64,000 nt of DNA from Spirulina sp. (GTDB lineage: Bacteria > Cyanobacteriota > Cyanobacteriia > Phormidesmidales > Phormidesmidaceae). Within the stretch, counting starts at the first letter, position 1, and the number at the start of each line of letters is the position of its first letter. The stretch covers positions 1-64,000 of the forward strand of contig JBIPSI010000026.1 in the NCBI GenBank assembly GCA_044070495.1. The letters are read 5' to 3'. Positions 22,677-49,401 of the stretch are shown here, one piece after another. Below the pieces are notes generated by a model. It was not told where the DNA came from. It saw nothing but the letters and a program-made list of their open reading frames with translations, and ran no database searches. The position numbers and the translations under genes are program-made.

Positions 22677-23546
22677 CTATTCCACCATTCGCATACTCAA
22701 ATCGAGCCAAGGGGCGCGGGTGATGGGGGCGCTGCTGGAGATAAAATCTACCCCGGTTTCGGCAATGGGGCGTAGGGTATCTAGGGTGACATTGCCGGAG
22801 GCTTCGATTTTGATGCGGGGATTGGCCTGCCGAATGGTTTGCACCGCTACGGCCATTAAATTGGGGGGCATGTTATCTAGCATGATGATATCTACCCCGC
22901 AATCTAGGGCCTCTTTCACCTGGGCTAAATCGGAGGTTTCGACTTCGATGTTGAGAGTGTAGGGGATGGTTTTTCTCACCTGATCCACCGCCGCCCGAAT
23001 GCCCCCCGCTGCGGCAATGTGGTTGTCTTTAATCATCACCGCATCGTCCAACCCCAGACGATGGTTGCAGGCCCCGCCCACACGGGTGGCGTATTTTTCT
23101 AGCAGGCGCAGACCAGGGGTGGTTTTGCGGGTGTCTACAAACTGGGTAGGATAGTTCGCCAGGGCATCCACATACTGCCGAGTTGCCGTGGCAATGCCGC
23201 TCAGTCGCATGGCCACATTCAGGGCCACCCGTTCCCCCATCAGCAGAGTAGCGAGCGATCCCCGCAGCCTAGCCACCACGGTTCCCGGTTCACAAAACAC
23301 CCCCTCAGGGACTTGGGGATCAAAGCCCGACTCTGGATCCAGCAAATAAAACACCCGTGCGGCAATCGGTAAACCCGCCACGATCCCCGGAGCCTTGGCC
23401 ACCCAGATCGCTTCCCCCGGTTGCCGCGCCAAGTCCCCCAGCCCCGCCGTAGACCAATCCCCTCGGCCAATGTCCTCTTGCAGCCAGCTTTGTAGAGGGG
23501 GATCCAGGAGAATGGCGGGCAGGGAAAGGGGTAAATCGGCGGGCAT
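22677..23546 (-). CDS. nadC: Quinolinate phosphoribosyltransferase
   Basis: DTRKTTPGLR, NHRLGLDD, IKDNH, IMLDNM, EASG. Confidence 0.97.
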   Translation of the reverse strand: MPADLPLSLPAILLDPPLQSWLQEDIGRGDWSTAGLGDLARQPGEAIWVAKAPGIVAGLPIAARVFYLLDPESGFDPQVPEGVFCEPGTVVARLRGSLATLLMGERVALNVAMRLSGIATATRQYVDALANYPTQFVDTRKTTPGLRLLEKYATRVGGACNHRLGLDDAVMIKDNHIAAAGGIRAAVDQVRKTIPYTLNIEVETSDLAQVKEALDCGVDIIMLDNMPPNLMAVAVQTIRQANPRIKIEASGNVTLDTLRPIAETGVDFISSSAPITRAPWLDLSMRMVE

Positions 23547-23614: not shown

Positions 23615-23896
23615 TAATGCTGACAAGACCAGCAGGAGAACCCTTGAGATTGTACCCTTTAGTCCTTCAGGAGGTGATGCCCATGCAAGAGAGTAGTAAA
23701 CGTATGGGTCTTCAGGTTAACGAAAGCCGGCTGTGCACCGGGGCCGTTCTCTAAGACTCAGTGTTCGCCTAGCGAACTAAGCTTCTGAAGCTGGCTGATA
23801 AGGGTTCCTCCCGGCAGTCAGGTTTAACCGAAGATCCAGCTAGACCGCCCTCGCCTTTGAAGAGTTTCTCTTCCCTAGGCAGGGCGGATAGTTTTT
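23615..23896 (+). ncRNA. Candidate sRNA or micro-ORF transcript
   Basis: Possible extended -10 TGtTACCTT (23600-23608), AGGAGGTGA then ATG (23683..23754, 23 aa), long terminal hairpin plus T run. Confidence 0.5.
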
Positions 23897-23940
23897 GGGG
23901 ATGCTTTAGGATCAGGGGGTTGAACTACGGAATCTCCACT

Positions 23941-24222
23941 ATGGCTACCCTATTAACAACTGAAGCCATTCAAGCCAAGCTTACCCAACTGCCCGACTGG
24001 AACCTCAACGGCAAGACGATTACCTGCACCCGCACCTTCAAAAATTTCATTGCGGCGGTGGATTTTGTGAACCGTCTGGTGGAACCCGCTGAGGCGGCAG
24101 GCCATCACCCCGACCTCTCCATTTCCTACAACAAGGTCGTGATCGAACTGAGCACCCACGATGCGGGTGGGCTGACAGAAAAAGATTTTGCCCTCGCCCA
24201 AACCATCTCAGCGATTGATTAA
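23941..24222 (+). CDS. Pterin-4-alpha-carbinolamine dehydratase
   Basis: AEAAGHHPD, THDAGGLTEKDF; start at ATG 23941. Confidence 0.93.
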   Translation: MATLLTTEAIQAKLTQLPDWNLNGKTITCTRTFKNFIAAVDFVNRLVEPAEAAGHHPDLSISYNKVVIELSTHDAGGLTEKDFALAQTISAID

Positions 24223-24419: not shown

Positions 24420-25076
24420 TTACCAGTCGCCGGACATCACCGCTAGGGTGTCTCCGGCCAGGGTCATCAGGGTGATGGGCAGGGATGGGCCTTGCTCTTG
24501 ACGAGGAAACTGCACGAGTTGAAGCCCAGATTCGGCGGGTTCTACGGTAATCACATAGTGATTCTGTTGCCACTGCACCCCCACCAATCGATGGTGCATC
24601 AGCCAGACCTCGGCGAGGTAGCCCTGGTTGATGGCCTCCGGTTGGTTGCCCTCATAGCAGGCCCAGGTTTGATCCACCACCGTCCACAACCCCGATAGAT
24701 ACAGGGGATCGGTGCGGGCGCTGAGGCCGTAGGTGGTGAAGGAAAAAATCTCGTGGCTCCACCAATCTTTGGCCACGCTCAGCAGCGGCTCGGACTGTAG
24801 GGCAGCGCCGTACTGGGGAATGGTTTGCAGATGTTTTTGCTGGGTTTGGGTGGAGGGCCGTTGCCAATCGGGCAGATCTAGGCAAACCTCTACCGGCAGC
24901 GCATTCTCTGAAAACTGGGGATTAACAAACTGGGGATCAACGGATTGCGCTTGGGCCACCGATGGAGGGATGGCGGACAGAGGAAGCGATTGATTCAAAC
25001 CTCCCGCCGTACCCAAAACCGCAGCCGTCATTAACGCTAAGGAAAATGGTCGAGTTATGGTCTCAAAAATAGCCAT
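24420..25076 (-). CDS. Exported hypothetical protein
   Basis: Signal peptide-like N-terminus with AQA; no family recognised. Confidence 0.75.
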   Translation of the reverse strand: MAIFETITRPFSLALMTAAVLGTAGGLNQSLPLSAIPPSVAQAQSVDPQFVNPQFSENALPVEVCLDLPDWQRPSTQTQQKHLQTIPQYGAALQSEPLLSVAKDWWSHEIFSFTTYGLSARTDPLYLSGLWTVVDQTWACYEGNQPEAINQGYLAEVWLMHHRLVGVQWQQNHYVITVEPAESGLQLVQFPRQEQGPSLPITLMTLAGDTLAVMSGDW

Positions 25077-25391
25077 TGATTGGAGTTGCTTAGGGAGTTA
25101 ACTATAGAAATGGAGGGGTAGAGCATCCGTTGGCAAACGAGCCTTGATCGGATAGAACGATCAACGCTAACCCAAGGGGCTAGACTATCTCTGGAGTGAA
25201 GCTACTAAAAGCAAGGCCAAGGGTGACTTGACCCTAACCCGCTGACGGTGAATCTGTAGCGTTCAAAACGACCGATACCGCCGTGGCCTCAGCTTCAAAG
25301 GCAAACGCTATGTATCGCAGACGAACTATGCAAAACCAAACTATGGGCTTGTTCTAGCGTCGGCTACCCATCGCTGATGGCGATTTCCGGT

Positions 25392-25480
25392 GAGCAATTC
25401 ATCCATTAGGAGAGAGCCTCCCAACTCCTAGCCAAGCTTGCCCTAGAATCGCTTCCTAGGCGGCGGCTACGGCATTGCTC
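25392..25480 (-). ncRNA. Candidate structured cis-regulatory RNA
   Basis: Four nested or adjacent stems closed by GAGCAAT/ATTGCTC, upstream of 24420..25076; strand inferred. Confidence 0.45.
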
Positions 25481-25616
25481 GTTGGTAAATCAATACAATA
25501 CTAAGATAGCGGTTTCGGTTCAAAATTTACGCCTCTGGGGAGTATTTTTTGGAGATTTTTTAGAATTTACTGGGCGGCCCTAAACCATGACCGTGGGCCG
25601 TTATGATCCCCGTCGC

Positions 25617-26720
25617 CTAAACAACGCTCGCTTCAGGCAAAATCAGCATGGCATCGCCAAAGGAGTAGAACCGATAGGCCTCTTGGATGGCGGTGTCGTA
25701 GAGGCTGAGCAGGCGCTCGCGACCAATCAGGGCACTAACTAGCATCATCAGGCTGGATCCGGGCAGGTGGAAATTGGTAATCAGGCCATCAATCACCCGA
25801 AACTGGTAGCCCGGATAGATATAGAGATTGGTTTTGCCATGGAGCGGTGCTAGCGATCCCCCTTGGGCGGCCCCTTCTAGGGCACGCACCACGGTGGTGC
25901 CCACAGCAATCACCCGTCCGCCGTTGGCCTTGGTGGCCAGGATTTTCTCCACGGTGTCGGCAGGAAGGTCAATCCATTCGCCGTGCATTTTGTGTTCGAG
26001 GATGTTCTCAGCTTCCACGGGCCGAAAGGTGCCCACCCCCACATGGAGGGTCAACTGGGCACGGGCGATCCCCCGTTGGTCTAGCCCCTCGAAGACCTGG
26101 GGGGTGAAATGCAGTCCGGCGGTGGGTGCGGCGACGGCTCCGGGCGTTTCGGCATAGATGGTTTGGTATTGCTCTGGGGAGGCGGTGGTGTCGGTGATGT
26201 AGGGGGGTAGGGGGACATTACCCAACCGCTCGAACAGGGCATAGAGGGATTCCCCTGGAGTCGGATTTTCACCCACCTCAAACCGCAGCAGGCGACCATT
26301 GGTGTCGGCATCGGTTTCCAAAACGTAGGCGATGAGTGCTGGCTTTTCCGGGTTTTCGCCAAAGTGGATGATCGCCCCCGGCTTCAGGCGACGACCGGGT
26401 TTGACTAGGGCCAGCCATTGGTGATGGCCCTTTTCCTCCAGCAAAAAGACTTCGACCTTAGCTCCCTCTGGTTTGTACCCTAGCAGCCGAGCGGGGATCA
26501 CTTGGGTATTGTTCACCACCAGCAGATCCCCCGGTTGCAGCAGGTTGGGGAGATCATAGAAATGCTGATGGCGGTAACTGGTGCGGGAATCGACCACCAA
26601 CAGCCTCGACCTATCCCTTGGGGTGACAGGGTTTTGGGCAATGCGCTCCGGCGGCAAATGGTATTGATAGGCGGCGAGGGTGTAGTCGGCGGCGGCGATA
26701 TCGGGGTTTTGGGCGGACAT
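25617..26720 (-). CDS. queA: SAM:tRNA ribosyltransferase-isomerase
   Basis: [43 protein letters not shown]. Confidence 0.97.
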
Positions 26721-37276: not shown

Positions 37277-38302
37277 ATGCAAACCTACGGAAATACTGAC
37301 GTTACCTACGACTGGTGGGCCGGAAACGCCCGCTTTGCAAACCTTTCGGGCCTATTCATTGCGGCCCATGTCGCCCAAGCTGCCCTAATTGCCCTCTGGG
37401 CCGGGGCCTTCACCCTGTACGAACTCTCTTGGTTTGATCCGGCCCTACCCCTGGGCGAACAGGGGTTAATCCTGCTGCCTCACCTGGCCACCTTGGGTCT
37501 GGGAATTGGCGATGGTGGCCTGATTGTGGATACCGAACCCTACTTTGTGGTGGGGGTGGTGCACCTGATTTCCTCGGCAGTGCTGGGGGCGGGGGCGTTG
37601 TTCCACACCGTTAAAGCCCCCGCCGACCTCAAGCAAGCCGAGGGCTGGGCGCGGCGCTTCCATTTCGAGTGGGAAAACCCAGCCCAATTAGGAATGATTC
37701 TCGGTCATCACCTGTTGTTTTTGGGGGCAGGGGCGCTGCTTCTCGTCGCCAAAGCCACCACCTGGGGCGGGTTGTACGATGCCACTCAGCAAACCGTGCG
37801 CCTAGTGCAGCCCACCCTCGATCCCTGGGTGATCTACGGCTACCAAACCCACTTTGCCAGCATTAGCAGCCTGGAGGATTTGGTCGGTGGACACCTCTAT
37901 GTGGGCGTTCTGCTGCTGGCTGGGGGCCTCTGGCACATTCTGGTGCCGCCGATGAAGTGGGCCAAAAACCTGCTGATGTTCTCCGGCGAGGCGATTTTGT
38001 CCTATTCCCTAGGGGGCATTGCCCTGGCGGGTTTCGTAGCCGCCTACTTCTGTGCCGTTAACACCTTGGCCTACCCCGTGGAATTTTACGGCCCGCCGCT
38101 GACGGTCAAACTCGGCATCATGCCCTACTTTGCTGACACCGTGGTTCTGCCGCTAAATGCCCACACCTCCCGCTGTTGGCTGGCCAATGCCCACTTCATC
38201 CTGGCCTTCCTGTTTTTGCAAGGGCACCTGTGGCACGCCCTGCGAGCTATTGGATTCGACTTCCGGCGCGTTGAACAAGCCCTGAGCGCCATCGAATCCT
38301 AA
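37277..38302 (+). CDS. isiA: Iron-stress chlorophyll-binding protein IsiA (CP43')
   Basis: MQTYGN...[22 protein letters not shown]; 341 aa, lacks the large CP43 loop. Confidence 0.93.
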
Positions 38303-49117: not shown

Positions 49118-49257
49118 GTTCGCGGTTATGGCAATGGAAGACGGCCATCTATTGATTAACCTATTCCCTTAAAGGGAGCTAGGGTCATAAGAAATCCTGG
49201 TTGAAAATGGCTGTAATTGGGATGACATCGCTGAAAACCTTAACTATAATAAAGAAC

Positions 49258-49321
49258 GTGTGAGGAGCGAACCAGAGGAGATGCCGAGACGAAACACGGC
49301 CAGTCGTCGGCATCTCTTTTG
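49258..49321 (+). ncRNA. yfr2: Yfr2-like ncRNA
   Basis: TATAAT at 49245-49250, 5' GTGTGAGGAG, loop GAAACACGG in GAGATGCCGA/TCGGCATCTC stem, T tail; motifs match my recall of Yfr2. Confidence 0.72.
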
Positions 49322-49401
49322 TTTTAAATACTTTTTCCTACCATCCCCTTCAACAGGTAGGAGCTATGAAGAACTTATAGGTCAACAGTAGTGGTGCAGG
49401 T

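Follow-up and report, generated by a model that had tools for sequence, protein, structure and literature searches.

In the window, by which we mean the whole 64,000-nt stretch of DNA that was analysed, queA (25617-26720, minus strand; Pfam PF02547, E 3.7e-132) is followed on the same strand by the gene for an orphan protein of 218 aa (P0001; 24420-25076). A first-pass annotation had placed a structured RNA element on the minus strand of the 540-nt gap between these two genes, and both the length of the gap and its gene context were as it gave them. Every string that it listed was found on the minus strand at correct coordinates: an 89-nt element (25480-25392) that runs from GAGCAAT to ATTGCTC and has an AT-rich stretch directly upstream of it on that strand, and a CCATC-AGC-GATGG hairpin (25380-25368). 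The end of the element lies 316 nt upstream of the start codon of the 218-aa ORF, against the distance of about 315 nt reported originally. The orphan gene is further adjoined by the genes for pterin-4a-carbinolamine dehydratase (23857-24222, plus strand) and quinolinate phosphoribosyltransferase (22677-23546, minus strand), and with such neighbours it appears to be monocistronic.

The product had been called an exported protein, and its N-terminus does resemble a signal peptide, with a hydrophobic stretch and then an Ala-rich site, although this signal was recognized by eye only. The protein belongs to no Pfam or NCBIfam family, and its 122 homologues are all annotated as 'hypothetical'; two cysteines and an FTTYGLSAR block are invariant in the family. 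An AlphaFold2 model reached a pLDDT of 70 (mostly above 77 for residues 55-218, below 50 for residues 1-54). This model has no neighbours in the PDB (best Foldseek E 0.2; best VIA-align Z 2.3), and its best match in the ESM Atlas, at 0.88, falls under the lead threshold of 0.9. The protein gives no clue to what the leader upstream of its gene might sense. A protein collection holds the same protein as a 203-aa form (P0002) starting at residue 16, a difference that touches 25031-25076 of the minus strand; since all close relatives keep the initial codons, including the ATG at 25076, the longer, 218-aa start seems to be the correct one.

Small reading frames of 20-33 aa are present in the gap. 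Two were considered as small proteins and rejected on alignments with relatives, a 27-aa frame being broken by a 1-nt deletion in G050 and a 24-aa frame on the plus strand lacking a start in G052. Judged by such frameshifted or startless ORFs in relatives, the leader region is non-coding. At the gathering score, Rfam 15 (4227 families) matched only IsrR and Cyano-1 in the whole window, both elsewhere than in the gap; these two mark the DNA as cyanobacterial. The Rfam check proposed in the first-pass annotation thus yields no known family here, even up to E 10, where 25000-25700 gave nothing except one GP_knot1 row of 19 bits, on the opposite strand and without meaning; known riboswitch classes are among the families without a match in that interval. 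Self-cleaving three-way-junction ribozymes (hammerhead-like) were rejected on the same search, with no Rfam model matching up to E 10, and 6S RNA (RF00013) was rejected as well, the genome's copy lying on another contig (96.5 bits) and the gap being without a match.

The promoter-like box and the leader

A promoter-like box (25518-25499, minus strand; core CGCTATCTTAGTA, which includes TATCTT) precedes the element and is 100% identical in the window's clade, where it also contains TTGAAC-17 nt-TATTGT. The box was not called in a scan for the sigma-70 consensus. We infer from its conservation, together with the positions at which RNA contigs stop, that it is a promoter, and transcription would then start at about 25488-25496. 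The predicted start zone (25481-25498, minus strand), near whose end the longest RNA contig stops (25482), also holds the 5' strand of an outer stem in which 25491-25484 pairs with 25388-25382, a stem found in the MFE, the centroid and the RNAalifold consensus. Adjoining the box upstream is an A-tract-rich region (25519-25559, minus strand; identity 0.82 in the clade), possibly an UP-like or activator site. A conserved block, mostly ATCCCAAAGAAGTGG, occurs about 45 nt upstream of the box in L037-L069, with an A-tract version in the window's clade; this block could be an activator or UP-like site.

All of the 12 box loci tested by tblastn are followed by a homologue of the 218-aa protein, while queA lies upstream of the box in only six of them, those nearest the window. 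Allowing up to 3 mismatches of 16, the box was found upstream of the homologous gene in 35 of the 80 genome_contigs loci, every one of them within the 39 closest (L031-L069), and the 41 more distant loci all lacked it; L057 and L059, where it stood 108 and 42 nt from the match, were set aside from the 35. The loci and the protein homologues bear names such as Nodosilinea, Leptolyngbya and Phormidium. By this synteny, the partner of the box is the downstream gene rather than queA. It is unique in its own genome, and its use as a regulon site was rejected (one exact copy and one with a single mismatch in the genome, with 7 matches for a reversed control). We also discarded hits of a family-wide box pattern (two or fewer mismatches) in three genomes outside the genus (G093, G098 and G132), which lack the leader and gene start that follow the boxes of the genus type; the reversed control of this pattern matched 22 of 173 genomes.

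The leader from box to start codon is always long, at 224-554 nt in 34 sequences and about 420 nt in the window. We compared the pairwise identity of its parts with that of spacers and codon positions among the four clade genomes. The box stood at 1.00 and was followed by the most conserved non-coding core of the leader, a 122-nt segment (25243-25364, minus strand) whose identity of 0.947 exceeds that of codon position 2 of the downstream gene. Lower values were found for the region just before the start codon (25077-25124, minus strand; 0.84), for the 89-nt element, hereafter the junction (0.82), and for a terminator-like hairpin (25203-25236, minus strand; 0.72); the neutral classes, spacers and codon position 3, gave 0.55-0.60 and 0.59-0.68. 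The aptamer of a riboswitch would be expected to be its most conserved part and to occur throughout the lineages that have the regulated gene; here the junction is surpassed by the core.

The core is recognizable in both sister lineages, and an nhmmer profile built on it hit only five of the 80 loci, with no similarity beyond the window's clade and these two sisters. Thermodynamically it is ordinary (z = +0.12), and the RNA of about 294 nt does no better than its shuffles (z = -0.65). Such strong conservation, combined with an ordinary folding energy, argues for sequence-specific recognition rather than a compact fold, and so the core points to recognition by a protein or by base pairing. Duplexes between the leader and the start codon region were no better than with shuffled start regions and had no conserved place. 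A segment of the junction, CUAGGAGUU (25411-25403, minus strand; CUAGGGGUU in the other five sequences), is a one-bulge complement of AACUCCCUA, which lies at 25100-25091 of the minus strand, 25-35 nt ahead of the AUG; in the two sisters that lack the junction, AACUCCCUA gives way to UUUCUAAG or GUUCUAAG.

The terminator-like feature consists of a hairpin at 25236-25212 and a short U tract, and was the sole terminator-like site in a scan of 24900-25800. A hairpin with a U run occupies the same leader position in all four of the clade leaders scanned (G000 and L031-L033); in the sister genomes G052 and G055 the clearest such arrangement lies about 45 nt before the gene instead. Leaders outside the window's clade showed no consistently placed terminator, and the idea of attenuation therefore rests on this clade and the two sister lineages. 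In L034, which has a G052-type leader, a G+C-rich stem of about 7 bp runs into UUUU some 45 nt ahead of the gene and looks like a textbook intrinsic terminator, and L035 has a comparable hairpin and U run; their position, in the interval between leader and start codon, is where an attenuator would sit. Another short hairpin, GGGC/GCCC with a C-rich loop UUCCCCCCACA, was observed in L037-L065 (alignment A5) some 110-140 nt past the box; a pattern search recovered it in 21 of 27 other Nodosilinea-type leaders, and its third pair is A-U in 4, G-C in 14, G-U in 1 and mismatched in 2. The window's own leader shows no obvious equivalent.

Fold and distribution of the three-way junction

The three-way junction drawn in the first-pass annotation (P1; P2 with an extension; P3) is also predicted as both MFE and centroid by ViennaRNA, with small differences in the middle arm. 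Its folding energy is statistically undistinguished, being no better than that of shuffled sequence: 65 of 200 dinucleotide shuffles fold as well as the 142-nt span (z = -0.47), 16 of 200 fold as well as the exact 89 nt (z = -1.36), and the opposite strand (z = -0.70) behaves similarly to the minus strand. The covariation that had been sought as support was not significant in the six available sequences, which are about 90% identical. For the 25 pairs as first drawn, 92.7% of positions are paired among the six homologues with no pair changed on both sides, values that 500 of 500 shuffles reach. A 30-pair structure refined by RNAalifold did better, with 96.1% paired (reached by 30 of 500 shuffles) and two pairs with compensatory changes (reached by 105 of 500).

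The closing stem P1 forms in five of the six sequences when the element is folded alone, and is missing from one MFE; its second pair is broken in five of the six. The CCATC/GATGG hairpin, of which the four counted pairs are 100% paired in the six sequences (with one change from U-A to U-G), faces a competing long-range stem in the alifold consensus. Substitutions avoid the stems, with 11 of 42 paired columns variable as compared with 24 of 47 unpaired, and most of the changes that do fall in stems of the junction still leave a pair. Taken with an identity above that of the neutral classes, this indicates that the fold is probably real and somewhat constrained within the clade, although six sequences cannot prove it.

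A BLAST search of 53 genus genomes (with the gap, and with 25200-25535) gave matches of full length in four genomes other than that of the window: G019 (91% identity), G005 (89%), G067 (88%) and G050 (88%). A covariance model of the junction (R1) found the same five of the 53. Four further, weak matches to this model, at 21.7-33 bits, were rejected, none of them belonging to an Rfam family: long ORFs contain two of them, a third overlaps an ORF end, and the fourth is a terminator-hairpin pair after a stop codon. A pattern scan of metagenomes gave seven stretches, five of them chance matches, and a metagenome contig (L116) supplied a sixth variant of the junction. In the phylogeny of the downstream protein, a single shallow clade (support 95/100) unites the rows that bear the junction.

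The sister lineages show what may stand in place of the junction. In G052, and independently in the metagenome contig L112, the box leads through a 6-bp hairpin to the core, without the junction; in G055 an unrelated branched insert of about 125 nt, closed by a similar stem, occupies the position. Both lineages nonetheless keep queA, the box, the core and the gene. The place of the junction is thus a variable 5' stem-loop position, and on this comparison the junction itself is young, clade-specific and dispensable for whatever the rest of the leader does.

Presence of the leader in RNA libraries

In four metatranscriptomes from four studies, short contigs from relatives together span 25178-25482. 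They correspond to 25206-25453 in X1, to 25243-25457 in X2, to 25243-25440 in X3, and to 25178-25340, 25244-25340 and 25311-25482 in X4; separate contigs over part of the coding region were also present in X3 and X4. Cover in an RNA library does not by itself prove transcription. However, the part of queA at 25617-25900 was uncovered save for one 35-nt piece flanked by unlike sequence, and because this adjacent and better conserved gene is missing, carry-over DNA is an unlikely source of the leader contigs (although the uncovered parts, in queA and at 25083-25177, are no evidence of silence). We conclude from this pattern of cover, which spans 25178-25482 without queA, that the junction lies within an RNA.

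Assembled contigs such as these cannot give ends, strand or level. Their extents do bear on the annotation's concern that transcription might begin downstream of the structure. This concern is not borne out, since the contigs reach 25482, across the whole element; they include the entire junction, and only 6-14 nt are left between their limit and the start that the box predicts. On the other side they end at 25178-25243, and their common stop at 25243 may have arisen in assembly, at a variable site. In a relative, a contig of the coding region continues for 60 nt or more beyond the ATG on its upstream side, which indicates that the gene and the final stretch of the leader share a transcript. 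Accordingly, the region has what a 5' leader should have, lying on the same strand as the gene, adjacent to it and linked to it across genomes, with co-transcription seen for the last 60 nt or more in this relative's contig.

Interpretation of the leader RNA

The whole region represents a genuine leader or small RNA, expressed, restricted to a lineage and absent from Rfam. To this extent the original description as an orphan cis-regulatory RNA or sRNA suits it, as it is non-coding, conserved, linked to one gene and present in RNA libraries. The label 'riboswitch-like' is a misfit for the junction, which is less conserved than other parts of the leader, confined to one clade, replaced in sister lineages and without significant covariation; it is not the sensing or conserved heart of the leader RNA. 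A limited full-text search of the literature found nothing on Nodosilinea, which is too narrow a basis for calling the RNA undescribed.

The reading that we favor, and to which we would give an even chance, is that the junction is a structured module, specific to its lineage, near the 5' end of a long non-coding leader running from the box into the gene. Transcription would begin from the genus-wide promoter-like box, some 10-15 nt upstream of the junction, and the RNA would run on into the orphan secreted-protein gene as the leader of its mRNA. The role of the junction would most likely be structural, for example in protecting or shaping the 5' end of the transcript, and regulatory information would more likely reside in the 122-nt core and the terminator-like hairpin. 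Premature termination or processing at this hairpin would let the first 290 nt or so build up as a discrete RNA, and read-through past it would yield the mRNA. Stem-loop stabilizers at the 5' terminus of bacterial mRNAs exist, of the type in the ompA 5' UTR. The junction resembles these in lying only a few nucleotides from where a long leader is predicted to begin, at a site whose length and sequence vary by lineage while its position is kept; it differs in being a branched 89-nt structure rather than a simple hairpin, and the likeness depends on a 5' end that is itself predicted.

Two other readings seem to us unlikely, to a similar degree. One, still a serious rival, takes the region as an independent trans-acting sRNA of about 290 nt, with the box as its promoter, 25236-25203 as its terminator, the junction as one of its domains and nothing beyond synteny to connect it to the gene. 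Such an sRNA would explain why the terminator-like hairpin with its U tract recurs in the four clade leaders scanned, why contigs are limited to 25178-25482 and stand apart from those of the coding region, and why the core is very conserved yet weakly structured, as expected of a base-pairing region; word depth is also higher over this part in X3 and X4, although depth cannot rank genes. It accounts less well for a box and long leader that are always co-oriented with, and adjacent to, the same gene whatever lies upstream, for the lack of a consistent terminator in other Nodosilinea-type leaders, and for the relative's mRNA contig, which starts at least 60 nt before the ATG, past the only nearby -10-like hexamer. 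The other reading, just as doubtful, is that the junction is a neutral or near-neutral insertion that folds as any G+C-rich 89-mer would. Its z-scores inside the range of shuffles, the insignificant covariation, the loss of one P1 pair in five of six sequences and of P1 altogether from one MFE, and the sisters that have lost or replaced the junction and retain leader and gene are all what such an insertion would show. Neutrality is hard to square with an identity of 0.82 where neutral classes of the same genomes have 0.55-0.68, or with substitutions that favor unpaired columns (24 of 47, as against 11 of 42 paired) and mostly keep pairs when they fall in stems.

Least likely of all, and in our judgement very improbable, is that the junction is a new riboswitch aptamer controlling the secreted-protein gene. 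Its three-way-junction topology at the 5' end of a long leader, the terminator-like hairpin downstream and its presence in RNA-library contigs, from which we take it to be transcribed, would all suit an aptamer. Nonetheless none of the 4227 Rfam families matches it, it belongs to the less conserved part of the leader, it is limited to five of the 53 genus genomes with no significant covariation, and sisters that keep the gene and the core have it deleted or replaced. Moreover, about 155 nt lie between it and the terminator-like hairpin, with no alternative pairing to connect them.

A broader possibility, tentative and on balance improbable, concerns the whole unit rather than the junction, namely that it is an undescribed cis-regulatory RNA of the Nodosilinea group, an attenuator whose terminated 5' part is also an abundant sRNA. 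In riboswitch and attenuator leaders the prematurely terminated 5' part can accumulate as a small RNA. The window's leader is similarly long, with a terminator-like hairpin upstream of the gene and its 5' part found as separate contigs in RNA libraries; it departs from those systems in having no known aptamer, no anti-terminator alternative that we could find, and a most conserved part that is weakly structured. Were the attenuator real, it would comprise the box and a fast-evolving leader with clade-specific cores, supplemented here by the junction and the terminator-like hairpin, and a ligand, protein or condition would through it control an orphan secreted protein of unknown fold.

Whichever reading holds, a tidy three-way junction upstream of a gene does not suffice for calling a riboswitch, and here it proves to be an evolutionarily labile part of the leader. 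An uncharacterized gene family of filamentous cyanobacteria has a conserved promoter-like box and an unusually long leader, and this leader, with its presence in RNA libraries, offers a testable entry to the regulation and function of the orphan secreted protein. The three versions of the leader, which carry the junction, a hairpin or another insert at the same position, amount to a natural experiment on 5'-proximal RNA modules.

The window's leader RNA is comparable to Cyano-1 and IsrR in being non-coding and of narrow cyanobacterial range, but has no sequence or structure match to either and is linked in cis to one gene family. The copies of these two RNAs in the window are an IsrR antisense RNA at 37670-37844 on the minus strand (75.9 bits, above the Rfam gathering score) and a Cyano-1 RNA at 49254-49323 on the plus strand (41.3 bits, barely over its cutoff of 41).
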